Shown: positions 4,488-63,443, counted from the stretch's first letter. The stretch: 64,000 bases of DNA from Candidatus Parcubacteria bacterium (GCA_043760135.1 JAYUPL010000014.1:25347-89346); one strand, 5' to 3'. Numbers and translations are program-made. Notes: generated by a model from the letters alone, not told the origin.

Positions 4488-5010
4488 AATAATTAACAAA
4501 AAAAAGAATAGCGGTTTTTCAATAATTGAAATAATTATTTATTTTTCAATACTCGCAATTATTTCTACTTTAGTAATTGGTAATATAATTTCACTTTTCA
4601 AAAACTATAATGTAGTAAGGGCTAATCAGGATATAGAATATAATGCCATTTCAATACTTGATAAGCTGACTCGAGATACTCGAGATGCTGCATTCATAAA
4701 TACATCAGACTCCTTATTTTCTGTGTCACAGGGTGCAATCTCTTTAAACATTGCAAGTTCGACTAATAGTACCGCTTCTAACACAGCTAAATTTTATCTA
4801 AACAATAATAAGATAAAATATAAAAAAGATGGTGTTGATTTTGGTAATCTTTCTACAAATGCAGTTACAGTTTCCAATTTTAAAATATATTATATAAATT
4901 CTTCCACCACTGAAGCTATAAAAGTAGAGCTGAATCTTGAAGTGACCCCTCACCTACATTCAGCAGTGATTTCTAAAAACTTTTACACTACTATACAACT
5001 TCGTGAATAA
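4480..5010 (+). CDS. prepilin-like minor pilin
   Basis: NSGFSIIEIIIYFSILAIISTLVIG prepilin-like N-terminus. Confidence 0.55.
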   Translation: MNKIINKKKNSGFSIIEIIIYFSILAIISTLVIGNIISLFKNYNVVRANQDIEYNAISILDKLTRDTRDAAFINTSDSLFSVSQGAISLNIASSTNSTASNTAKFYLNNNKIKYKKDGVDFGNLSTNAVTVSNFKIYYINSSTTEAIKVELNLEVTPHLHSAVISKNFYTTIQLRE

Positions 5011-6819: not shown

Positions 6820-6841
6820 TAGAGTGTGATATAATATTTTA

Positions 6842-18640: not shown

Positions 18641-19547
18641 ATTCTACAGGCCACTCGCCATCGAAGTTTGGAAGCACTACTTTATCGATATAATCTTTAA
18701 AGAGGCTACTTTCAGGATTAATGCCTAAGAGTAGTTCATTGTAGAGATGACTAAAGAATCCTTTGTGTCCGAAAAATTCTCTAGCCGCTGTCCTGGTGTA
18801 CTTATAGTGACTCAACGCACCTACCCAGGAATTTAAAGTACTGAGTATGTGGAAACACTTAAAGTCTTCGGCATTTTCCCAATGACAATCTTCCGTGACG
18901 ATGCTCAGATGGGTATAGTCTAATCTCCCAGGCCGAATGATTCTTTGTCCAAAATGTGTCCATCGGCACAAGTTTTCATTAGTGATGTGGGCGGCGAATA
19001 ATGGACTCCATGCCTCGTGGTCTTCATCAGACAGAAAATCTGTAAGTCTTCCTGCATAATCATTGGGTGATGCAAGACCACACTTAATAAAAATCCAGAT
19101 TAACATCTTACGTAGGAATTCTTGTTCATCTCTGTATAAATCCAGACTAAAGCCGTACATTTCAGATGAATAACCGGAGGCATTTGGTACTTGAGACCAG
19201 ATAAGATCTATATCATTCCCTAACTTTTTGTATGAAGGTACATCTGATTTGCCGTATTTTTTATAAATAATGTTTTGTTTCCGACGCAATTCTTCAACGC
19301 GTTTGGTTCGGTTTGGAACCAAAACAGTAATATAGTGAATCAGCGATTCCAAAAGGGTAACATACAGATCATAATCACTGTTTTCTTTACGTTTTGCGTC
19401 GATATCACTGTTTCTGTTTTTATTCAGTACAATCCAAGGATAAAGTTGGCTAAAATCTCTCCAATCATTGCTCAGTTTTTGGATGAGCGCGTTGAGCAAG
19501 GGAAGGAATGCGGGGAATGCCACGAAGTTTTCTGGAAACATTTTCAT
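18639..19547 (-). CDS. hypothetical protein (302 aa), GC-elevated
   Basis: Long ORF with GC near 42% and no recognisable motif. Confidence 0.4.
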   Translation of the reverse strand: MKMFPENFVAFPAFLPLLNALIQKLSNDWRDFSQLYPWIVLNKNRNSDIDAKRKENSDYDLYVTLLESLIHYITVLVPNRTKRVEELRRKQNIIYKKYGKSDVPSYKKLGNDIDLIWSQVPNASGYSSEMYGFSLDLYRDEQEFLRKMLIWIFIKCGLASPNDYAGRLTDFLSDEDHEAWSPLFAAHITNENLCRWTHFGQRIIRPGRLDYTHLSIVTEDCHWENAEDFKCFHILSTLNSWVGALSHYKYTRTAAREFFGHKGFFSHLYNELLLGINPESSLFKDYIDKVVLPNFDGEWPVE

Positions 19548-19669
19548 TTTTGTATTTGGTTTAAGTTTCTTTGGTTTCTACTTTAGTAACCTTGCAATCA
19601 GTATACATCCATGTCATAATAATATATACCATTCGCCGAAACGCGAATAATATTGTAATATATAGATAT

Positions 19670-22259: not shown

Positions 22260-22730
22260 ATGAGAAGAAAAGTAAAAAACCGAAACGTCGCTGGAGTTGA
22301 TCCACGCTTCGATTCACTAACATTAGGAAAATTTATTAACTATGTTATGTGGGACGGTAAAAAATCTACAGCAAGAACTGTCGTATATGACATGCTTGAA
22401 GTATTAAAAGAAAAAACTGGAAACGAAAATCCTATTGAGATTTTTGATACAGCGATTAAGAACGTATCTCCTCAAGTTGAAGTTCGATCAAGAAGAGTTG
22501 GTGGTGCAAACTATCAGGTTCCTTATGAGATCAGACAAGACAGAAGAACTTTCTTAGCTATGAACTGGATCATTGGTGCAGCTCGTAATAAAAAAGGAAA
22601 GCCTATGCACTTAAAATTGTCAGACGAGATATTGGCTGCAATGAAAGGTGAAGGTGAAGCTATGAAGAAAAGAGAGAATACACACAAGATGGCTGAGGCT
22701 AACAAAGCCTTCGCACACATGGCTTGGTAA
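22260..22730 (+). CDS. rpsG: 30S ribosomal protein S7
   Basis: MRRK...DPRFDS...FINYVMWDGKKSTA... conserved S7 signature. Confidence 0.9.
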   Translation: MRRKVKNRNVAGVDPRFDSLTLGKFINYVMWDGKKSTARTVVYDMLEVLKEKTGNENPIEIFDTAIKNVSPQVEVRSRRVGGANYQVPYEIRQDRRTFLAMNWIIGAARNKKGKPMHLKLSDEILAAMKGEGEAMKKRENTHKMAEANKAFAHMAW

Positions 22731-22732
22731 TC

Positions 22733-22800
22733 TCGTATTTTTATAGAGTGATGAAAGACTCCAGAGATGGAGTTTTTCTTTGTACCCCTTTATGGGGTGT
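22733..22800 (+). terminator. two successive hairpin terminators after rpsG (actcca-gaga-tggagt+TTTTC; acccc-tttta-tggggt+gtgtttt)
   Basis: Both stems are directly followed by T-runs. Confidence 0.55.
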
Positions 22801-22914
22801 GTTTTATAACTTTATAAAAAATACTGTAAAAATTTAAATTTTCTTGATCAGTATTTTATGTTGTTTTTGCTAACGTAAAACATTACAAAAACAGATATAC
22901 AAAAAATAAAAAGA

Positions 22915-23277
22915 TTGATTCTTGAGTACTATCTCCTCGAGTCTGGTGTTCTTATTGATAATCATGAAGAATTGTTGATTGTAATAGAGAGCCTCAAAGT
23001 TTACATTTCAAGACGAGCTTTAAAACATTTTGTTGAAAGAAGGAAAAGTAAGAATTTAAATATTGTAATGCTACACAAAGCAATTGATTTTATTAAACCG
23101 ACAATATTGTCATATGATGTTATTGAATATTTTGAACCTAATAAATATATCTATATAAAGCATTTTTACCGAATCAATATGCCCTCACTTAGGGTTGTGG
23201 CAGAGGTTATTGATAATCATCTGCAAATAAAATCAATTCATTACAGGATATATAAAAAGACCCAACCCGAAGGTTGA
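22915..23277 (+). CDS. hypothetical protein
   Basis: 120-aa ORF, first gene of the island that follows rpsG. Confidence 0.35.
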   Translation: MILEYYLLESGVLIDNHEELLIVIESLKVYISRRALKHFVERRKSKNLNIVMLHKAIDFIKPTILSYDVIEYFEPNKYIYIKHFYRINMPSLRVVAEVIDNHLQIKSIHYRIYKKTQPEG

Positions 23278-23436
23278 ATCTTTTTATCATAGTTGGGGTG
23301 TCGGCACTGCACCCATGAGTACTCTAGTTTTTACTAGTGCCCGCAGCGGCCATTTCTGTCGTCAAGCTATATGTTTAGAATTATATTCTTTTCAAATATT
23401 TTGTCAAATAATACTTATATATGCTATAAATGACAC

Positions 23437-24390
23437 ATGAAGATTTCGCAGGATAAACCCCTAGACCCCTCATACACCGTAATACTATTTTACAAATATA
23501 CTCCGATAAAAGAATTGGATCGTTGTTTGAATTGGCAAAGAGGGATATGTAGAAAATATAATCTCACAGGAAGAATCCGTTTGGCTTCAGAGGGAATAAA
23601 TGCAACATTAGAAGGTAAAAATGAAGACATTGAAAAATATATTAATGAAATAAAAACAGATTTAAAATATCATGACTTGCATGATGTGGAAATAAAAACA
23701 TCGGTTGGTAGTGGCTTTGCGTTTAATAATTTATCAGTAAAAATCGTAACTGAGATAGTAAAGCTTGGACTTGGAACAGAAGACATTGATCCAAATCAAT
23801 TAACTGGAGTTCATTTAAAACCTTCAGGGTTAAGAGAGTGGTATGAAAACAATGATGACTTTGTTGTTATTGATATGAGAAATGATTATGAGTTTAGAGT
23901 TGGACATTTTAAAAATTCTATCAATCCACCAATTACAAACTTTAGAGAGATTGCAGATGTGTTACCTGACATTGTAAAAGAAAATCCTGGCATAGAAAAC
24001 AAAAAAGTATTAACCGTATGTACGGGAGGGGTGCGTTGTGAAAAAGCATCAGGATATCTAATGAAGCAAGGGTTTAAAGATGTGTATCAACTGGATGGAG
24101 GAATGCATAAATATATGGAGGAGTTTCCAGGGAAAGATTTTCGTGGAGGATTGTTTACGTTTGATAATAGAGTAGTGATGGATTTTACAAAAGATAGAGA
24201 AGTTATTGGAGTGTGTGATATGTGTAATGAAAAGACAGAAAGATTTGATAATTGTATCAATGATGAATGTCATGTGCATATGATGGTGTGTCATGAATGT
24301 AGAGAGAAGAATAAGTTTATCTGGTGTTCAGATACATGTAGGGAGACCGGCAGAGTTGGGAAGGTGAGGTTTCGGGATATGGTGTTGTAA
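23437..24390 (+). CDS. trhO: rhodanese-domain tRNA U34 hydroxylase-like protein (TrhO/YceA family)
   Basis: ILFYKY N-terminus, rhodanese active-site loop CTGGVRCEKA, and a C-terminal Cys cluster. Confidence 0.7.
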   Translation: MKISQDKPLDPSYTVILFYKYTPIKELDRCLNWQRGICRKYNLTGRIRLASEGINATLEGKNEDIEKYINEIKTDLKYHDLHDVEIKTSVGSGFAFNNLSVKIVTEIVKLGLGTEDIDPNQLTGVHLKPSGLREWYENNDDFVVIDMRNDYEFRVGHFKNSINPPITNFREIADVLPDIVKENPGIENKKVLTVCTGGVRCEKASGYLMKQGFKDVYQLDGGMHKYMEEFPGKDFRGGLFTFDNRVVMDFTKDREVIGVCDMCNEKTERFDNCINDECHVHMMVCHECREKNKFIWCSDTCRETGRVGKVRFRDMVL

Positions 24391-24502
24391 GCTTTATATA
24401 TTCACGATATGTACCCTTTAAATCGTGAAAATATACGATTAAAGAGTACTTATTCACGGTTTAACTTGACTTTATAGTGAATAAAAGTATCATATTAGAT
24501 AT

Positions 24503-25384
24503 ATGATAATGTCTAATATATACAAAAAAATAGAAAATCTTCGTCAAAGGTACCAAAAAGCGTTACCAGGTAAGGAATCTTTGATAAAGATGATTGAAGA
24601 ATCAGAAGTTGCTGAACAGGTGTATAACTCAAATGCTATTGAAAACAGTACTCTTTCACTTGAAGAGACTGAAAAAATCATACTACAAATAGACCTAGAT
24701 AGATTCATATCCGAAAGAGAACTCTTCGAAGCTAAAAATCTAGCTCGAGTCGTTTCTTATATAAGCACGAAAGCAAAGGAAAAAGAGCTAGATCTTGATA
24801 TGATTTTACTTTTGCATAAAATGTTGATTTCAAATATTCAGGATGATATTGCGGGTAGGTTTAGAAAAAATGGTGAATGGGTTCGTGTTGGCAATCATAT
24901 CGCCCCAGACCCGCTTGAGGTCGTTTTAAGGCTTACTGACATGCTGGTTGAATATAACTCATACCCAAGTCATCCTATAACAAAAAGAGTTGCTTTAATG
25001 CATTTAATGTTCGAACACACTCACCCATTTTGTGATGGCAATGGTCGGATTGGCAGGATATTGAATAATTATGTACTTATACGAGAAGGTTTTGTTCCGA
25101 TCAATATAAAGTTCATAGACAGACAGTTGTATTATCAAGCATTTAAAGATTTTGATTTAAAAAATAGTATAGAAATAATGGAGGAAATTGTAGGCAAGGC
25201 GTTGTTAAATAGTTATCATAAAAGACTGGCATATCTTGAAGGGTTGAAAATTGTAACATTGGCAGAATATGCAAAGATGAAAAAGATGTCGCATCCAAAT
25301 CTTATAAATAAAGCCAATAGGCAGACGATAGAGGCGTTTTTGGATCAGGGGATTTGGAAGATTGGGGTGAGGGAGGGGGTGTAA
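24503..25384 (+). CDS. fic: Fic-family AMPylase, class II (N-terminal inhibitory helix)
   Basis: Fic motif HPFCDGNGRIGR. N-terminal SNAIEN matches the [ST]xxxE[GN] auto-inhibitory motif. Confidence 0.85.
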   Translation: MIMSNIYKKIENLRQRYQKALPGKESLIKMIEESEVAEQVYNSNAIENSTLSLEETEKIILQIDLDRFISERELFEAKNLARVVSYISTKAKEKELDLDMILLLHKMLISNIQDDIAGRFRKNGEWVRVGNHIAPDPLEVVLRLTDMLVEYNSYPSHPITKRVALMHLMFEHTHPFCDGNGRIGRILNNYVLIREGFVPINIKFIDRQLYYQAFKDFDLKNSIEIMEEIVGKALLNSYHKRLAYLEGLKIVTLAEYAKMKKMSHPNLINKANRQTIEAFLDQGIWKIGVREGV

Positions 25385-25387
25385 ACT

Positions 25388-26155
25388 TTACTTAATCGCA
25401 GTACTCCACACAAACAAAAAAATTTGCTTAAACATATTAGAAATAGTTGGAGATGAAATAGTCACTGCATAAATATTTCCATCTTTTAATGAAAATAATG
25501 CCACATGGTCTTCCATTGCAATCATTGTTGAATTAAATGGAAATTGATTTGGTAAAAATCTCACCTCTCTATATTCATCATTGGTATATGCTGGAAGATT
25601 GAGGTCTTTAACGAATTCTGGAGCAATCAGATGGGTAAATATTTTAAGTTTATTTTTACGATTAAGTACATTAGGTAGATATTTAGGAAAATTCTCTAAA
25701 AGTTCAGGGTGAGATACTGTATAAAGGTTTCTTTCTGTTTTTGTTTCTAAAATATCATAAAACCCATTAATAATATCTTTTATTGCATCCTTCCCTTCAT
25801 AAAATCTTACTTCTGGATGCAGGGTATTTTTTTGGAGTAGGGATTCAAGTTCGGGGAATATCTCTTTTATTATACTTGTTTTTGATTCAGCTTCTTTAAC
25901 TAATCGTCTAGGGTTTTCTGCATACCAGTAGGCAACCTGGTTTTTCTTAAATATGTTTACTAAATCACGCTTTTTTAATCTTTCCAGATCACAGTATACA
26001 GTGGTCCGGGGAAGGGTAAGATGTTTTGCAACCTGAAAAACAGTCTGATCTTTATTACTTAATAGGTAAAGATAGATTGAAGCCTCTCTGTCATTAAGGC
26101 CATATTCTATTAGATTTTGGGTTAAATTGTTTAGTGTCATAAAAGTGGACAACAT
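25388..26155 (-). CDS. TrmB-family transcriptional regulator
   Basis: N-terminal wHTH (EASIYLYLLSNKDQTVFQVAKHLTLPRTTVYCDLERLKKRDLV) plus a C-terminal TrmB-like domain. Confidence 0.7.
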   Translation of the reverse strand: MLSTFMTLNNLTQNLIEYGLNDREASIYLYLLSNKDQTVFQVAKHLTLPRTTVYCDLERLKKRDLVNIFKKNQVAYWYAENPRRLVKEAESKTSIIKEIFPELESLLQKNTLHPEVRFYEGKDAIKDIINGFYDILETKTERNLYTVSHPELLENFPKYLPNVLNRKNKLKIFTHLIAPEFVKDLNLPAYTNDEYREVRFLPNQFPFNSTMIAMEDHVALFSLKDGNIYAVTISSPTISNMFKQIFLFVWSTAIK

Positions 26156-26249
26156 TAGTATATATTATATTGCTTTACATGTAAAGGTTTTATGTATTTT
26201 ACTATAAGAACAGTCATATTTCATGACATTAATTGACATTTAATATATT

Positions 26250-26990
26250 ATGTTACTTGGAACTAGTTGTTCCAAAAGAACCCTAAAAATCAACAATATG
26301 ATCGGATTATCAAATAGTGTACGACTTGAGCAACGTGTATATTATCGTCAGTCTTTGTCCTTGGATTTGAGACTGGGTTGTGATCTCACAATAGAACAAC
26401 GAGTAGATCAAATCGATACAGGAAACTGGTACTATGCAAGTTTCATTGATTTTATTGATCGTGCTATAGGTCATCAGATTTTACCGTCTGCAACCTGTCT
26501 CAATTGTTATCATGAGCTTTCAATCGCTGAAATCGTTGTGGGCTTTAAAAGAGATAGGGATGATTTCACGACACAATGTCCAACATGTAAGAAAAGGTTT
26601 GAAGCAACAAACCTGCTTGATCGTCGGACAGGAAAGGAAACCCAGTTCTGGTGTGATGAACAAACACTTGCACGATTGTATAGCAAAGAGCATCTCGAAG
26701 TTGAGGAGTTTGAGGCTAAGCATCCAGAAATCTATTACTCTGCACTTTTTCACTTCGGTAGTTTATTGAATGCTTTTAGCAAAATTAAAATCAAGTATCA
26801 TAAAGAGAAGCTAAATTGGCCTGATAAGGCTAAACTTTTTCTGGGACAGATTCCTGATATTGATGTTGCGAAAGTGTTCGGTGTTAAAATCTCTGAGATT
26901 AGAAAAGCTCGCATCGAATTTGGTATCGATGCATTCCCAAGAAGTAAATCTATTATGCCTGCAAACTGGAAACCCTATAGAAACAACTAA
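26250..26990 (+). CDS. hypothetical zinc-ribbon protein with C-terminal HTH-like segment
   Basis: CLNCYHE...CPTCKK cysteines. C-terminal DVAKVFGVKISEIRKARIEFGI. GC elevated. Confidence 0.4.
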   Translation: MLLGTSCSKRTLKINNMIGLSNSVRLEQRVYYRQSLSLDLRLGCDLTIEQRVDQIDTGNWYYASFIDFIDRAIGHQILPSATCLNCYHELSIAEIVVGFKRDRDDFTTQCPTCKKRFEATNLLDRRTGKETQFWCDEQTLARLYSKEHLEVEEFEAKHPEIYYSALFHFGSLLNAFSKIKIKYHKEKLNWPDKAKLFLGQIPDIDVAKVFGVKISEIRKARIEFGIDAFPRSKSIMPANWKPYRNN

Positions 26991-26991
26991 C

Positions 26992-27246
26992 ATGCAACAC
27001 AACGGAGAAAATACAAAACTGGAAAAAGGAGATATATGTCGTTGGTTCAAAGGACATGGAACTATTACGTTTATCCGAGACTTAAAACATATGCGGATAC
27101 ACGAAGGTCAGGATGATAAATTCTGTGTCCAATCAATATCCTTCCTTCATTTTGCAGAAATGGTAAAAATGGTATCGGAAGCAACAGGTATGAAAGCGAG
27201 TATTCATGCAGACAACGAGCAGTTTGCGGATTACATATTCAGCTGA
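26992..27246 (+). CDS. hypothetical small protein
   Basis: 84-aa ORF taken from the internal ATG directly after the previous stop. Confidence 0.3.
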   Translation: MQHNGENTKLEKGDICRWFKGHGTITFIRDLKHMRIHEGQDDKFCVQSISFLHFAEMVKMVSEATGMKASIHADNEQFADYIFS

Positions 27247-27334
27247 CAGATTTGTTTATAATCATCAAACGCACGGACTCTTAATGGAGTACCGGCGTTT
27301 TTTTCTTGATTTGGATAATTTAAAAAGGACTAAA

Positions 27335-27387
27335 CCTATACTTAAGTACAGGAAAAAGGGTGGTTTTTCTATACTTGAGTATAGGAA
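27335..27387 (+). promoter_or_regulatory. two direct 20-bp repeats ctaTACTTAAGTAcaggaaa / ctaTACTTGAGTAtaggaaa, each with an internal palindrome, overlapping the promoter region of the Bro-N gene
   Basis: TACTTAAGTA is a perfect 10-bp palindrome. Repeats are spaced 33 bp apart (3 helical turns). A TATAAT lies at 27409..27414. Confidence 0.4.
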
Positions 27388-27425
27388 ATTTAGAATTTGA
27401 CACCAATGATATAATTAAATAATCA

Positions 27426-28250
27426 ATGAATAAAAAAGCTGATAACAAAAAAATAACTATCTTTGAGGATAAAGAAATACGTCGCGTGTGGCATGATGAG
27501 CGATGGTTTTTTGTTGTCGAAGATGTTATCAAAGCCCTTATTGACTCAAACGATGCTAAGCAGTATATACAGAAAATGAGAACACGTGATCTTGAATTAA
27601 ATCAAGGGTGGGTACAAATTGTACTGACCCTTGACGTGTCAACAAAAGGTGGTCTTCAGAAAATGATATGCTCTGACATGGAAGGTGTTTTTCGTATAAT
27701 CCAATCAGTATCATCCCCTAAAGCTGAACCATTCAAGCTCTGGCTAGCTCGAATAGGTAAAGAAAGACTGGAAGAAATAGCAAACCCTGAACTCGCTGTG
27801 GCTCGGGCTAAAGAACTATATGAGAAAAAAGGCTATGACAAGTCGTGGATAGATAAACGCATGCGAGGCATTGCAGTTCGTAACACTTTGACTGATGAAT
27901 GGAAAAACCGTGGAGCAAAAGGTTCTGATTATGCAATTCTGTCTGATGAGATATATAAAGCAACATTTGATAAAACTGCAAAAGAATACATGGATCATAA
28001 AAGCCTTGATAAAAAAGCGGGGGATAATCTTCGTGATCATATGGGTGATATCGAGCTTATCTTGACTATGCTTGGTGAAGCAACGACAACAGAGCTTTCG
28101 ACAACTAAAGATTCTCAGGGTATTGTTGCGCTTAAACAAGATGCTGAAACTGGTGGAGAAGTTGCTGGGCGGACACGGAAAGATATTGAGGAGAAGACGG
28201 GTAAGTTGTTGGTGTCGAAGAGGAATTTTAAGGATAGGAAACGGATTTAA
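27426..28250 (+). CDS. Bro-N domain protein (DinD-like, DNA-damage-inducible/phage-antirepressor family)
   Basis: ITIFEDKEIRRVWHDERWFFVVEDVIKAL and SSPKAEPFKLWLAR match the Bro-N domain. Confidence 0.75.
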   Translation: MNKKADNKKITIFEDKEIRRVWHDERWFFVVEDVIKALIDSNDAKQYIQKMRTRDLELNQGWVQIVLTLDVSTKGGLQKMICSDMEGVFRIIQSVSSPKAEPFKLWLARIGKERLEEIANPELAVARAKELYEKKGYDKSWIDKRMRGIAVRNTLTDEWKNRGAKGSDYAILSDEIYKATFDKTAKEYMDHKSLDKKAGDNLRDHMGDIELILTMLGEATTTELSTTKDSQGIVALKQDAETGGEVAGRTRKDIEEKTGKLLVSKRNFKDRKRI

Positions 28251-28530
28251 CTATTACATTTTTCGAACCATCGATGTATAATACATATGTGCTTGTTAAG
28301 CGAAAGCTTTATATCGGCTACTAAGCTGAAGGTAGGCATTGATAAAGATCTCGTTCTCGTAACGGGTTTTTATGTTATACGTTAGTCATTATAACTTTAT
28401 ATTTAGGGTTTGAATCAAGTAAACTTTATAAAGTTTGGTAAATATTAAGTCTGAGTATAAAGTTTGCTTACATCAAAGGGTTTTAAGGGTGCTTTGTAAA
28501 TATATAAAACTAGGCTACAATATTACCTAT

Positions 28531-29028
28531 ATGGAAGGATTACAAACATTAGAGGAAAATAAAATAAGTTCATTAGAAACACTTGCCACAGAGTATTCTG
28601 TCTTAGCTAAGTATTTAGAGTCAAGTGAAAAATTTTATAGTCACAATGGAATACCTTTACCTGAAGCATTGTATGACGAAGAAAATAAAGAGCTTGTTAT
28701 AGAAATGACTGTTCCTGAAACAGCTCAGGCTTGGGAAGGGTTTGCTCATGGTGGATATTTGGCCACTTTATTAGATACTGGTGCTGGTGTAGCAGGTTTT
28801 ATGGAAGCTATAAAAATGGGAAAAGGTATTGTAACAAAAGAAATAAATAATATAACTTACAAAGCGCCAATACCTGTTGGTTCGCTTATTAAAGTTCGAG
28901 GGAAAATTGTTTCAATAGAAGAAAATGTTGTCAATACTGAAGGATATATATCGTTAGTTATTGAAGGTAAAGAGCGAAGACCTTTTGTATATTGTACAGC
29001 AAAAATGGTTATTAAGGATATTGGTTAA
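28531..29028 (+). CDS. hotdog-fold acyl-CoA thioesterase (PaaI-like)
   Basis: AHGGYLATLLDTGAGVAGF motif. Start taken at the internal ATG. Confidence 0.6.
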   Translation: MEGLQTLEENKISSLETLATEYSVLAKYLESSEKFYSHNGIPLPEALYDEENKELVIEMTVPETAQAWEGFAHGGYLATLLDTGAGVAGFMEAIKMGKGIVTKEINNITYKAPIPVGSLIKVRGKIVSIEENVVNTEGYISLVIEGKERRPFVYCTAKMVIKDIG

Positions 29029-29098
29029 TATATAAAATGAACCCCACTCAGCTAATGCCTTGTGGGGTTATGTTTTGAACCAGAGTTTGTGACCCGGT

Positions 29099-29560
29099 TC
29101 ATTTCCTGATGACCGCTACGTTCCAGTAGTCGGGATACCAACCTTCATGCAGGTGTCTTTTTTGATAGTTGATTGCTGATCCGCGACGGCTGTATTCAAT
29201 TGAAACGACCCATTTATCAGTACTGAAATAATTCTCAAACATGCTACCGAAGAAGAAGAGAGCGTGACCATCCATGCATACAGGGGGAAGATGTTTGAGA
29301 CTTTCGTCAGCGGGATTTTTTGAAATATAATCAGACATGCAATGATTTAAGGGGATGTATTCTACCTGTTGTTGTAACAAGTTAAACATATCCCCAATAG
29401 TCATGTCCTTTGTTCCAATTTTGATTACTTCGATATGGCGAGGGTCAACCATTCCACAATTTTGAAAGTTTGTAATCGGTTCTTTGTATTTAAACCATTT
29501 ATGTTTCTGAATTTCTTCATATTCAGCTGAGGAACTGCAGTCTACTAATGTGTCAGTCAT
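29099..29560 (-). CDS. hypothetical protein
   Basis: 153-aa ORF, GC elevated. Confidence 0.4.
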   Translation of the reverse strand: MTDTLVDCSSSAEYEEIQKHKWFKYKEPITNFQNCGMVDPRHIEVIKIGTKDMTIGDMFNLLQQQVEYIPLNHCMSDYISKNPADESLKHLPPVCMDGHALFFFGSMFENYFSTDKWVVSIEYSRRGSAINYQKRHLHEGWYPDYWNVAVIRK

Positions 29561-29838
29561 ATTTTTGTTGAGTTAAATTTTCATCCACTACCCACACAGG
29601 TATAGGTAATTATTATTTAATTATAGCATATTTACCTATAAAAAGCAAGTTCATAATCGTTCATACCTCCCCGAGGTCGGGGTTCTTTTTCATCCCTAAA
29701 AGACACTCAAAACCCCCTAGAAATCCCCATCAATCCATGCTATAGTTCATGGACAAGTTTTGATTTTTTCGCACAAACTCGCGAGCATCAACACATTTAA
29801 CAAAAAATAAAACAAATATAAAAACAACACACAATTTT

Positions 29839-31983
29839 ATGCAACGTGATTATCCATTAGAAAAAACAAGAAACTTCGGTATTATCGCCCACATCGACGC
29901 CGGTAAAACAACAACATCAGAGCGTATCCTGTACTACACAGGTATGTCCCACAAGATCGGAGAGGTTCACGAAGGTGAAGCAGTAACTGACTGGATGGAG
30001 CAAGAGAAAGAAAGAGGTATTACGATCACTGCCGCTGCGATCACTTGTTTCTGGAATCCTTCTTACATGGGTACTGATAAGTCACAAATGCATAGATTTA
30101 ATATCATCGACACACCGGGTCACGTAGACTTTACGGTGGAGGTGGAGAGATCTCTAAAAGTTCTTGATGGTGCCGTTACTGTGTTTGACGGTGTTGCTGG
30201 AGTAGAGCCGCAATCAGAAACTGTATGGAGACAAGCTGATAAATATAACGTGCCTCGTATTTGTTTTATTAACAAACTAGATAGAACTGGTGGATCATTT
30301 GAAAAATCATTCAAATCAATCACAGAAAGACTTACTAAACATGCTGTTCGTATGCAAATCCCAATGGGAGAGGAAGAAAGAATGGTTGGTGTGATCGATC
30401 TTATGAAGATGAAATCATATACATTCGAAGGAGATATGGGAAGTAAGGTGATAGAAGCTGAAATCCCTGCTGAATACATGGCTGATGCTACAAAATTCAG
30501 AGCTGAGCTTGTTGAAGCTGCTGCATCACAAGATGATGATATGATGAACACATATCTTGAAGGTGGTGAATTTACTATTGAGCAATTAAAAGCTGCTATT
30601 AGAAAAGGAACATTGGCTAACAAACTTTTCCCAGTATTTACAGGAACAGCTTTGAAAAATAAAGGAGTACAGCTTGTACTTGATGCTGTTGTAGAATACC
30701 TACCATCTCCACTTGATATTCCACCAGTAAAAGGACTTGATCCTGAAACTGGAGAAGAGATTGTAAGAGAGGCTTCTGATACAGAACCTTTTGCTGCTCT
30801 TGCCTTCAAACTACAAACTGATCCATTCGTAGGACAACTTACATTCTTTAGAGTGTACTCAGGAACTATTGAAGCTGGTTCATATATCTATAACTCAACA
30901 ACTGGAAATAAAGAAAGACTAGGACGTATTGTTAGACTACAAGCAAATAAAAGAGAAGAGGTTACAAAAGTATATGCTGGAGAAATTGCTGCAGCTGTAG
31001 GTTTGAAAGAAGCTCTTACTTCACATACTTTCTGTGATGAAGCACATCCAATCGTACTTGACCCGATTACTTTTGCTGAGCCTGTTGTATCTCTATCAAT
31101 TGAACCAAAAACAAAAGCTGACCAAGAAAAAATGGGTCTCGCACTTAGAAAACTTGGTAATGAAGATCCAACTTTCCGTATTACTTCAAATGCAGAAACA
31201 GGTCAAACACTTATCGCTGGTATGGGTGAACTTCACTTAGAGATTATGATCGACCGTATGAAGAGAGAATTCAACGTTGAAGCAAATGTAGGTGCACCTC
31301 AAGTGGCATACAGAGAAACTATTACTGCCGAAGTAAAAGATGTTGATTATAAATACGCTAAGCAATCAGGAGGTAAGGGTCAATACGGACACGTACGTAT
31401 TACACTTAAACCACTTGAAGAATTACCAGAAGGAACTAAACTTGCTAAAAATGTTCACCGAGAGCCTGGATATGAGTTTATTGACTCTATCAAAGGAGGT
31501 ATTATTCCTGGAGAATTTATTCCTGCAGTACAAAAAGGTGTTCGTGAGGCTATGGAGCGTGGTATTGTTGCAGGGTTCCCACTTACTGGAGTGTCTTGTG
31601 AACTTACTTTCGGATCATCTCATGACGTGGACTCATCAGAAATCGCCTACAAGATTGCTGCATCACAGGCCTTCCAAGAAGGTGCAAGAAGAGCAAAACC
31701 AGTTATCATGGAACCTATCATGCGTATCGAGGTTGTTGTTCCTGAGAAATTCATGGGTGACGTTACAGGATCATTATCATCAAAAAGAGGACAGATCGAG
31801 GGTATGGAAGATCGAGGTTTAAACAAGGCTATCAAAGCTCTTGTGCCACTTTCAGAGCTATTTGGATACACTACACAACTACGTTCTATGACAGAAGGTC
31901 GTGGATCAAGTACTATGGAATTTGCTAAATATGAAGCGGTACCACCAAACGTAGAAAAACTAATAGTTGACGCGAGAAAATAA
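29839..31983 (+). CDS. fusA: elongation factor G
   Basis: GIIAHIDAGKTTT, DTPGHVDF and NKLDR GTPase motifs. 714 aa. Confidence 0.95.
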   Translation: MQRDYPLEKTRNFGIIAHIDAGKTTTSERILYYTGMSHKIGEVHEGEAVTDWMEQEKERGITITAAAITCFWNPSYMGTDKSQMHRFNIIDTPGHVDFTVEVERSLKVLDGAVTVFDGVAGVEPQSETVWRQADKYNVPRICFINKLDRTGGSFEKSFKSITERLTKHAVRMQIPMGEEERMVGVIDLMKMKSYTFEGDMGSKVIEAEIPAEYMADATKFRAELVEAAASQDDDMMNTYLEGGEFTIEQLKAAIRKGTLANKLFPVFTGTALKNKGVQLVLDAVVEYLPSPLDIPPVKGLDPETGEEIVREASDTEPFAALAFKLQTDPFVGQLTFFRVYSGTIEAGSYIYNSTTGNKERLGRIVRLQANKREEVTKVYAGEIAAAVGLKEALTSHTFCDEAHPIVLDPITFAEPVVSLSIEPKTKADQEKMGLALRKLGNEDPTFRITSNAETGQTLIAGMGELHLEIMIDRMKREFNVEANVGAPQVAYRETITAEVKDVDYKYAKQSGGKGQYGHVRITLKPLEELPEGTKLAKNVHREPGYEFIDSIKGGIIPGEFIPAVQKGVREAMERGIVAGFPLTGVSCELTFGSSHDVDSSEIAYKIAASQAFQEGARRAKPVIMEPIMRIEVVVPEKFMGDVTGSLSSKRGQIEGMEDRGLNKAIKALVPLSELFGYTTQLRSMTEGRGSSTMEFAKYEAVPPNVEKLIVDARK

Positions 31984-61919: not shown

Positions 61920-63383
61920 ATGACATCAATCGAAGACATTCGCGACCAACGAGTAGAAAAGGTAAAACTTATACAAGACAAAGGACTAGAAGCTTTTCCG
62001 GTTAAATCAAATATAAACACAACCAATGCGGAATTTACAGATTCTTTTAAAGATCTTTTGGATTCTCAAAAAGAGATAATTACAGGAGGAAGAATTATTT
62101 CAGTTCGTGGACAAGGAAAACTTGGTTTTGTTGATCTTATTGACGGTACATCTGAGAAAGTACAATGTTTTCTATCTTTAGAAAATTTGGGTGAGGAATG
62201 TATTACAGATTTTTTTGAATTAATTGATACAGGGGATTTTATAGAATTCACTGGAAATGCTTATGTGACAAAAAGAGAAACGAATGCACTTTCAGTGACT
62301 GGGTGGAGATTGTTATCAAAGAGTTTGAGGCCGATTCCAGATTCATTTTATGGAATAGAAGATGAAGATGAGAGATACAGAAAGCGATATCTGGATTTTA
62401 TTTTAAATAAAGATAATCGAGATATGATGAAGAGACGAAGTATGTTCTGGAATACTATCCGTACATTTTTATTACAAAGAGATTATATTGAAGTAGAAAC
62501 TCCTGTACTGGAGAATACTACTGGCGGGGCAGATGCTCGACCTTTTACAACTCATCACAATGCGCTTGATATGGATGTGTATTTGAGAATATCAGCAGGT
62601 GAACTATGGCAGAAGAGATTATTGATTGCAGGACTTCCTAAAACTTTTGAAATAGGACGTATTTTTAGAAATGAAGGAATGTCTGCTGAACATGCGCAAG
62701 ACTATACTCAAGTAGAATTTTATGAGGCATACTCTGATTTTACAAAAGGTATGCAAATGACAAGAGAGTTATATATCAAGATTGGAAAAGAAGTTTACGG
62801 AAAAACAACTTTTGAAAATAAAGGACTTACATTTGATTTAAAAGATGAATGGTCAATATATGATTTCTCAAAAATTATTGAAGAAAAATATAATATCGAT
62901 ATTCACAATACAAATGTTGATGAAGTAGAAAAAGAATTAAAAAATAATGAAGTTGAGTATGATAAAAAAACTTTGTCTGTAGAAAGGGGAATAGACTTAT
63001 TGTGGAAGAAGGTGAGAAAAACTTTAGCTGGTCCTGGGTTCCTTGTTGGTATTCCGGTATACCTTGAGCCGTTAGCTAAGAAATCAAAAACAGATGAGAG
63101 AGTAGTAGAAAGATTCCAGGTTATACTAGCTGGATCTGAAGTTGGAAAAGGATTTTCAGAATTGAACGATCCGATCGATCAAAGAGAGAGATTTATGGCA
63201 CAACAAGCTTTGAGAGATGCTGGAGATGATGAGGCACAGATGGCTGATCTCGAATATGTGGAGGCGATGGAATACGGTATGCCACCAGCATTTGGTTTTG
63301 GTGTATCAGAAAGATTATTTTCATTTCTTGAGGGTAAATCAGTGAGAGAATGTCAGGCATTTCCATTGATGAGGAAGAGATAA
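61920..63383 (+). CDS. lysS: lysine--tRNA ligase (class II)
   Basis: N-terminal OB anticodon-binding domain, motif 2 FRNEGMSAEHAQDYTQVEFYEAY and motif 3 GFGVSERL. Confidence 0.85.
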   Translation: MTSIEDIRDQRVEKVKLIQDKGLEAFPVKSNINTTNAEFTDSFKDLLDSQKEIITGGRIISVRGQGKLGFVDLIDGTSEKVQCFLSLENLGEECITDFFELIDTGDFIEFTGNAYVTKRETNALSVTGWRLLSKSLRPIPDSFYGIEDEDERYRKRYLDFILNKDNRDMMKRRSMFWNTIRTFLLQRDYIEVETPVLENTTGGADARPFTTHHNALDMDVYLRISAGELWQKRLLIAGLPKTFEIGRIFRNEGMSAEHAQDYTQVEFYEAYSDFTKGMQMTRELYIKIGKEVYGKTTFENKGLTFDLKDEWSIYDFSKIIEEKYNIDIHNTNVDEVEKELKNNEVEYDKKTLSVERGIDLLWKKVRKTLAGPGFLVGIPVYLEPLAKKSKTDERVVERFQVILAGSEVGKGFSELNDPIDQRERFMAQQALRDAGDDEAQMADLEYVEAMEYGMPPAFGFGVSERLFSFLEGKSVRECQAFPLMRKR

Positions 63384-63443
63384 AGAAAAGATAAAGATGT
63401 TAAGACACAGCATGAGTTTTTTGTCTTTGATATTATATCCTTC

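Follow-up and report, generated by a model that had tools for sequence, protein, structure and literature searches.

What does a pair of short palindromic repeats do directly in front of a DinD-like gene in a candidate-phylum bacterium? We address this question for a stretch of 64,000 nt from Candidatus Parcubacteria bacterium (GCA_043760135.1 JAYUPL010000014.1:25347-89346; hereafter the window), in which a gene at 27426..28250 encodes a protein with a Bro-N domain and is preceded by two such repeats. The window is AT-rich (34.6% guanine plus cytosine, GC), and the best protein matches of its proteins are Patescibacteria (candidate phyla radiation, CPR) bacteria. An initial annotation, made from the sequence alone, had taken the palindromes to be repressor binding sites, as expected for a damage- or phage-inducible gene. 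We find a real, phased and dyad-symmetric element of limited distribution. We tentatively read it as a set of auxiliary sites at which a dimeric regulator, probably a repressor, would bind upstream of the gene’s extended -10 promoter.

The two direct repeats of 20 nt are present as annotated: CTATACTTAAGTACAGGAAA at 27336-27355 and CTATACTTGAGTATAGGAAA at 27369-27388 are identical at 18 of 20 positions (90%) and follow each other with a start-to-start period of 33 bp, that is, in phase on the helix. Each holds a 16-bp near-palindrome in which seven of the eight pairs are symmetric. The distal one, CTATACTTAAGTACAG (27336..27351), has the core ACTTAAGT and is centred 66.5 bp upstream of the -10 hexamer; the proximal one, CTATACTTGAGTATAG (27369..27384), is centred 33.5 bp upstream of it, at about -45 from the predicted start. 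The perfect palindrome that had been described for both repeats exists in the first (TACTTAAGTA, 27339-27348) and not in the second, which reads TACTTGAGTA. Between the near-palindromes lies the linker GAAAAAGGGTGGTTTTT (27352..27368), an A-tract, GGGTGG and a T-tract that are dyad-symmetric in themselves; as a result, the whole two-repeat element is also a single inverted repeat with arms of 22 nt (27335-27356 and 27364-27385, 86% complementary), made up of the linker and the flanking half-palindromes. The arrangement is more than chance. Mutually similar 16-bp near-palindromes 16-45 bp apart occur as one pair in the window, and any such pair turned up in one of 200 dinucleotide shuffles.

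Comparison of the DNA around nine close relatives of the gene shows where the array is found and how it is kept. Two other lineages, L083-86 (92% protein identity) and L088-89 (84%), carry it with three 33-bp units that share the core ACTTAAGT, and this dyad core is retained in every unit. In L088 the array sits after a rhodanese gene and not after the 84-aa (amino acid) open reading frame (ORF) that precedes it in the window, so it travels with the Bro-N promoter and not with the upstream gene. Between lineages, its 49-bp two-unit core is 82-90% identical. In the gene next to it, four-fold degenerate sites reach 64-68% (binomial P 2e-4 to 0.025), and the spacer to the left of the core is 63-78% identical. 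The linker is as well conserved between lineages as the palindromes. Measured from palindrome centre to -10 hexamer, the distances are 33.5 and 66.5 bp in the window, 42.5, 75.5 and 108.5 bp in L083, and 43.5, 76.5 and 109.5 bp in L088. The proximal distances (33.5, 42.5 and 43.5 bp) thus differ by about one helical turn, which places all eight sites roughly on one face of the helix. An operator array would be marked by dyad symmetry, by a whole number of turns between sites and by identity above the neutral level, and all of these are found in the three lineages available.

The core promoter TTTGACAC-CAA-TGATATAAT (27396..27415, plus strand) contains an extended -10 element, TGATATAAT, at 27407-27415. 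The series TTTGACAC-N3-TGATATAAT, then 10 nt, then the ATG is invariant in all seven aligned orthologous upstream regions, with or without the array. We take TGATATAAT to be the promoter because of this invariance and because a like arrangement, TGnTAnAAT 6-7 nt before an ATG, precedes several other genes of the window. Elements of this form that stand 6-10 nt before the ATG, without a Shine-Dalgarno sequence, are at 6827, 17363, 10245 (minus strand), 33155 (minus strand), 27407 (the present gene) and 63428. A TTGACA lies only 7 bp upstream of the hexamer and is therefore not a canonical -35. Transcription is predicted to start near 27422, 3-4 nt before the ATG at 27426, which would make the messenger RNA (mRNA) near-leaderless, and the positions of these elements suggest that mRNAs with no leader, or hardly any, are common in the genome. 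On its other side, the control region is bounded by the intrinsic terminator of the 84-aa ORF (27267..27307, plus strand), with a stem AAACGCACGGACTC/GAGTACCGGCGTTT followed by a T-run; hairpin and T-run are kept in L083 and L097.

The repeats had also been described as overlapping the likely promoter. In fact, the array stops short of the extended -10, with 22 bp between its end and the downstream TG in the window and 31-32 bp in L083 and L088. Overlap with the -35, the -10 or the start, as might be looked for in an operator, was not found, and in the window only does the array cover the stretch where a -35 would fall.

What, then, could the array do? At somewhat less than even odds (roughly 0.45), we consider it an accessory cis-regulatory binding array for a dimeric regulator, probably a repressor. 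The palindromes, two here and three elsewhere, would each bind a protein dimer just in front of the consensus extended -10 promoter. As the 33-bp spacing puts the sites on one face of the helix, two or three dimers could bind cooperatively at about -45, -78 and, in three-unit arrays, -111. Bound dimers would occupy the region that RNA polymerase needs for its upstream contacts and so lower expression. Since the promoter already matches the consensus, and orthologs that lack the array have an identical one, the array most likely lowers expression, and negative control is likelier than activation. Of the proposal that the repeats are repressor sites, a cis element is supported by their dyad symmetry, period, conservation and phase; an overlap with the -10 or the predicted start is not supported.

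Several observations weigh against this reading. First, four close ortholog lineages (L087, L090-92, L097-98 and L099-100) have the gene and an identical promoter but no array, so the array is not an obligatory control of the gene and any regulation is optional. L097-98 are especially telling: the 84-aa ORF persists in decayed form, and its terminator and the promoter are both unchanged, with nothing between them. Second, the array is clear of the -10 and the predicted start, and its edge in L083 and L088, 31-32 bp upstream of the extended -10, is at a position known for activators and repressors alike. Third, the whole array is also one long inverted repeat, and a role in DNA structure is inseparable from dimer binding on this evidence. 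Fourth, there are three independent array sequences only, and recent common ancestry explains part of their similarity; the statistics on conservation and phasing are weak for this reason, that is, modest evidence consistent with constraint. Finally, the binders of the array are candidates only, and the link of the TrmB-family regulator to it is thin.

These candidates are the neighbouring TrmB-family regulator and the DinD-like protein itself. The TrmB-family gene encodes a winged-helix protein (25388..26155, minus strand; Pfam TrmB E 6.7e-13) 1.2 kb upstream, and a 91%-identical ortholog occupies the same position in the array-bearing L083-86. Operators of the TrmB family read TACT-N3-AGTA in Pyrococcus and Thermococcus and TACT-N7-8-GAGTA in Halobacterium (PMC4158304). 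The palindromes of the window, TACT-N2-AGTA, have the same half-site letters with another spacing. Within this family the window protein is a remote, bacterial member that the TrmB equivalog models do not match, and a PDB sequence search did not reach the TrmB structures. Moreover, the sites of L083 have GACT/AGTC though its TrmB ortholog has a nearly identical DNA-binding helix; no TrmB gene is present in the 400 bp available upstream in L088; and a further locus with the TrmB ortholog, L144, has no array within 10 kb on one side, its contig ending 880 bp away on the other, relevant side.

Activation is the first alternative to be weighed. Here the same sites would be those of an upstream activator or an architectural element, with dimers on one face and A/T-tract bending recruiting or positioning RNA polymerase to raise expression. 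The geometry agrees with this: none of the sites reaches as far downstream as the -10, their centres being at about -45 and -78 in the window and -55, -88 and -121 in the orthologs, and their helical phase to the -10 is kept while the distance shifts by about one turn. The linkers between palindromes contain A5 and T5 tracts, and some TrmB-family members are activators (PMC4158304). However, the consensus extended -10 is unchanged in orthologs without the array, so activation seems unnecessary. We hold this explanation to be unlikely.

The patchy distribution of the array also invites a historical explanation, in which it is a functionless remnant that arose by tandem duplication on the spot, or was left behind by a small insertion, and that a few related lineages inherited and others lost. 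Presence and absence do alternate among close orthologs with identical flanks (L097-98 have the same upstream pseudogene, terminator and promoter and no array); the copy number is two or three, the element belongs to a single locus with no other copies, and three lineages only carry it. A remnant would not be expected to exceed synonymous sites and the neighbouring spacer in identity, to retain the core ACTTAAGT in every unit or to keep its helical phase despite an adjacent length change of 9-10 bp. A remnant is accordingly improbable to our mind, and the repressor array remains the preferred reading.

A regulon would show as a recurrence of the palindromes before other genes, which was not found in the sequence searched. 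With up to one mismatch, TACTTAAGTA occurs seven times in the window against 3.9 expected, a background frequency (10 of 100 shuffles reach seven); the refuting condition that the initial annotation set itself thus speaks largely against a regulon. Allowing up to three mismatches, the 16-mer consensus matches both units of the array and one further site, within a coding sequence; the expectation was 0.45. A motif scan of about 760 kb of related loci shows no array elsewhere; it stands upstream of orthologous genes only. A pattern search with CTTAAGTNNAGGAAAAAGGGT gave one chance match in metagenome contigs, inside a transposase ORF, and none in viral contigs, and tandem repeats upstream of 68 distant family members follow no family-wide pattern. 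The second DinD-like gene of the window has no such palindrome before it either: its upstream region, which the initial annotation had placed beyond the window, lies inside it (63384-63443). In the sequence searched (the 64-kb window and about 760 kb of related loci), no regulon is visible.

Two shorter motifs were noted in the course of the search. The octamer TACTNNAGTA is enriched in the window (seven against 1.4 expected, with 0 of 100 shuffles reaching seven), and we rejected it as a regulon signal since its extra sites are inside ORFs or alike only in those eight letters. TACTTTAGTA occurs at 4566, 10580 and 19579; two of the three are inside ORFs, and the one at 19579 is some 30 bp upstream of a minus-strand ORF starting at 19547. 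Their flanks do not resemble the array.

An SOS explanation, in which the palindromes would be operators of a LexA-like, damage- or phage-responsive repressor and the gene part of an SOS-type regulon like that of E. coli dinD, has its attractions. The protein is a DinD homolog, its modelled fold is closest to that of DdrC, also damage-induced, and a palindromic site lies tens of base pairs upstream of the start in both the window gene and E. coli dinD, which has a single 20-bp SOS box (CTGT-N8-ACAG) about 45-60 bp before its ATG. LexA motifs are also known to vary widely between phyla (PMC8565304). The window gene and its array-bearing orthologs nevertheless have two or three tandem 16-bp palindromes with a ACTTAAGT core, unlike the one SOS box of dinD. 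No CTGT-N8-ACAG box is found at the array, and the ACTTAAGT-type motif is at no other gene of the window. A tblastn search with E. coli LexA and an S24-domain protein returned no homolog from the 64-kb window, which is part of the genome. With a motif confined to this locus, a paralog without it and many orthologs lacking the array, the proposed link to damage and LexA appears very doubtful.

An equally low probability goes to a purely structural role, in which the 54-bp inverted repeat would act as a cruciform or as the hairpin of read-through RNA (and so serve as a switch that responds to supercoiling, as a backup terminator or to insulate the Bro-N promoter from the upstream operon): single-stranded DNA of the repeat does fold well (-13.6 kcal/mol, z = -5.6, with 0 of 200 shuffles folding as well), and palindrome position 4/13 co-varies (T-A in the window, G-C in L083) in six of eight units, but a canonical terminator already lies upstream, no T-run follows the hairpin, the symmetry is broken in several units (A-C, G-A and G-G pairs), and a tandem direct layout with a three-turn period is typical of protein sites. 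A role as RNA is also less likely given that the array lies between terminator and promoter. Consistent with this, only transfer RNAs pass the Rfam 15 gathering thresholds across the window, and a permissive search of 27200-27480 gave a best E of 0.23, with every match far below its gathering score.

We now turn to the proteins. That both ORFs carry Bro-N domains is borne out. The first gene (27426..28250, plus strand) encodes a protein of 274 aa in which Bro-N is followed by a helical domain at the C-terminus. It matches Pfam Bro-N (PF02498; E 2.4e-11, 44.5 bits against a gathering threshold of 25.6 bits), PADLOC PDLC04920 at full length (residues 7-272, E 5.4e-100) and PHROG 15286 (E 1.7e-73). 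The second (63444..>64000, plus strand) runs off the end of the window after 185 aa (its orthologs have 271-284 aa); it matches Bro-N at E 1.2e-6 (29.4 bits) and, as a partial sequence, PDLC04920 at E 5.9e-84. The C-termini of the two had been called divergent, which is not the case. The paralogs are 39% identical over 185 aa and align to the last visible residue, and P0121, a full-length ortholog (275 aa, 92% identical to the second paralog; PDLC04920 E 9.3e-117), aligns with residues 8-274 of the first protein at 40% identity (E 8e-66).

The second gene has an extended -10 of its own, TGATATTAT (63428..63436, plus strand), which ends 7 nt before the ATG, and a leaderless mRNA is predicted. 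A stretch of about 60 bp upstream of the gene is conserved in the orthologs L103-L105 despite other upstream genes. Within the conserved stretch, GATAAAGA occurs twice (63379-63386 and 63390-63397, 11 bp apart), the first copy overlapping the stop codon of the preceding 487-aa ORF.

E. coli DinD (strain MG1655) is likewise a protein of 274 aa with an N-terminal Bro-N, and the annotated presence of that domain holds (Pfam E 1.5e-7, 32.4 bits). The assignment of the two window proteins as DinD-like paralogs also withstands scrutiny, as their C-terminal homology to DinD is recovered in three ways. By BLASTP, residues 164-261 of the first paralog align with DinD 157-250 (E 9e-7); by hhalign, DinD and the window family are related with a probability of 68.5% (E 4.6e-5); and DinD matches the family profile PDLC04920 at 2.2e-16 over residues 122-250. 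The architecture, a Bro-N followed by a DinD-type C-terminal domain, is colinear in both. With about 26% identity over some 100 residues, the two are distantly related. The NCBIfam equivalog model for DinD (NF008573, cut-off 242 bits), which gives E. coli DinD 488 bits, has no match at E <= 0.01 in either window paralog or in P0121. As the model does not reach these proteins, ‘DinD-like’ is the correct name and ‘DinD’ is not.

By profile match, the window proteins belong to PDC-S13, a computational candidate for a defence system consisting of a single gene in PADLOC: both paralogs match PDLC04920, and E. coli DinD is PDLC04919 of the same system. A literature search found no paper that mentions PDC-S13. 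Unlike an obviously mobile island gene, the PDC-S13 gene at 27426..28250 keeps its chromosomal place between rpsG and fusA in relatives with 81-93% protein identity. The Bro-N domain is also shared with the Bro-N/Ant antirepressors of phages (PHROG anti-repressor families, E 1e-6; BFVD fold matches), and full-length relatives of 37-50% identity are present on 28 IMG/VR viral contigs. In contrast to phage antirepressors, the window gene is part of the chromosome and has no phage genes as neighbours, and its C-terminal domain is of the DinD type and not KilAC or ANT (Pfam finds Bro-N only).

The family is very large, with at least 8000 candidates in each of two homolog searches. Patescibacterial members share 50-57% identity with those of DPANN and methanogen archaea and of Bacteroidota. 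Full-length relatives at 47-58% identity (L003-L082) were seen in Methanosarcinales, Woesearchaeota, other DPANN archaea, Bacteroidota, Ignavibacteriota, Clostridia, Gammaproteobacteria and Dependentiae; such identity across domains suggests frequent horizontal transfer. In L093 (1485-3470) and L095 (1-3222), with protein identities of 80% and 85%, the DinD-like gene is in a different context. It is followed by type II secretion/type IV pilus-like genes (T2SSE, T2SSF, N_methyl) and preceded by a DUF3800 gene, together with a Schlafen-type helicase fused to an S24 (LexA-like) peptidase domain in L093 and a ResIII/DEAD-restriction endonuclease protein in L095.

A further likeness came from structure prediction. 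An AlphaFold2 (AF2) model of the first protein built from 32 close homologs reached a predicted local distance difference test score (pLDDT) of 57, and a more diverse alignment gave a pLDDT of 88 and a predicted template modelling score (pTM) of 0.65. The best PDB matches of the model are chains of DdrC from Deinococcus radiodurans, and the predicted structure has the DdrC-type two-domain fold, with a hairpin and winged helix in the N-domain and a helical bundle in the C-domain. No such relation was visible at the sequence level: PDB sequence searches with the first protein and with a family profile gave insignificant flavivirus NS5 matches only, and a profile of 47 family members run against all PDB sequences at E <= 10 did not return DdrC. 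DdrC is reportedly a damage-induced sensor of DNA nicks and breaks, part of the DdrO/IrrE radiation-desiccation regulon, and ddrC is said to be controlled through a radiation/desiccation-response motif bound by the repressor DdrO. The structural papers on DdrC reportedly describe it as having no homologs beyond Deinococcus.

The boldest idea that these likenesses allow is that the DinD-like (PDC-S13) proteins, including E. coli DinD, form with DdrC one ancient two-domain superfamily of DNA-lesion sensors across Bacteria, Archaea and phages. In the present lineage, the gene would then be under a private, cruciform-capable operator array read by the protein itself, a LexA-free autoregulatory loop coupling expression to DNA damage or supercoiling. 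We regard this as a long shot.

The setting of the gene was examined over a stretch of about 7 kb from rpsG (22260..22730) to fusA (29839..31983). In order, this stretch holds a 120-aa ORF, a rhodanese-family gene, the Fic gene, the TrmB-family gene (minus strand), a 246-aa ORF, the 84-aa ORF, the Bro-N gene, a thioesterase gene and a 153-aa ORF. The Bro-N gene is constant between rpsG and fusA in relatives with 81-93% protein identity, and its neighbours differ. That is, the interval (22731-29838) is a variable island whose contents change among close relatives (the window, L083, L087, L088 and L090) and include Fic, TrmB, NrtR/NUDIX/NAMPT, zinc-ribbon proteins and unknowns, with the DinD-like gene as the constant member. 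At 34.4%, the GC content of the island is the same as that of the remainder of the window.

Of the neighbours, the Fic-domain gene (24503..25384), 2 kb upstream of the DinD-like gene, matches PADLOC SoFic and the candidate system PDC-S04. PDLC04841, one of the PDC-S04 profiles, recognizes the Bro-N part of the DinD-like proteins at their N-terminus and also the C-terminus of the Fic protein; by implication, Bro-N-Fic fusions occur elsewhere. The TrmB-family gene and the 246-aa ORF are divergent, and the intergenic region that separates them holds a perfect 14-bp palindrome, CTTTACATGTAAAG (26172-26185), whose counterpart in L084 is CTGTATATGTAAAG, with the symmetry lost. The 246-aa ORF stops at 26988-26990 and the 84-aa ORF starts at 26992 (26992..27246, plus strand); neither has a family match. 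The 84-aa ORF is frameshifted in L097 (2100-2500), and only its last 11 or so codons are left in L083 (3700-3830); the terminator is kept in both. As a partner or regulator of the DinD-like gene it was rejected: L097 has it as a pseudogene, L083 retains a remnant and L088 lacks it altogether, and the small ORFs that precede other orthologs bear no relation to it.

Altogether, the observation in the initial annotation is partly confirmed and its interpretation partly supported, and the array would be an ordinary kind of gene control: a routine case of a lineage-specific set of regulator sites before an accessory gene. To our knowledge, almost no regulatory sites have been characterised in candidate-phylum bacteria, and the array offers a short (about 50 bp), clean target for how such bacteria regulate a DinD-like gene. 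The by-products of the analysis may outweigh the array itself, namely a very large, cross-domain family that is listed merely as a candidate defence gene, and its DdrC-like predicted fold. If the link to DdrC is one of homology, the sensing of nicks and breaks by DdrC would provide a testable model for E. coli DinD and for PDC-S13, and DdrC would not be specific to Deinococcus. It is this resemblance to DdrC that is most worth following up.

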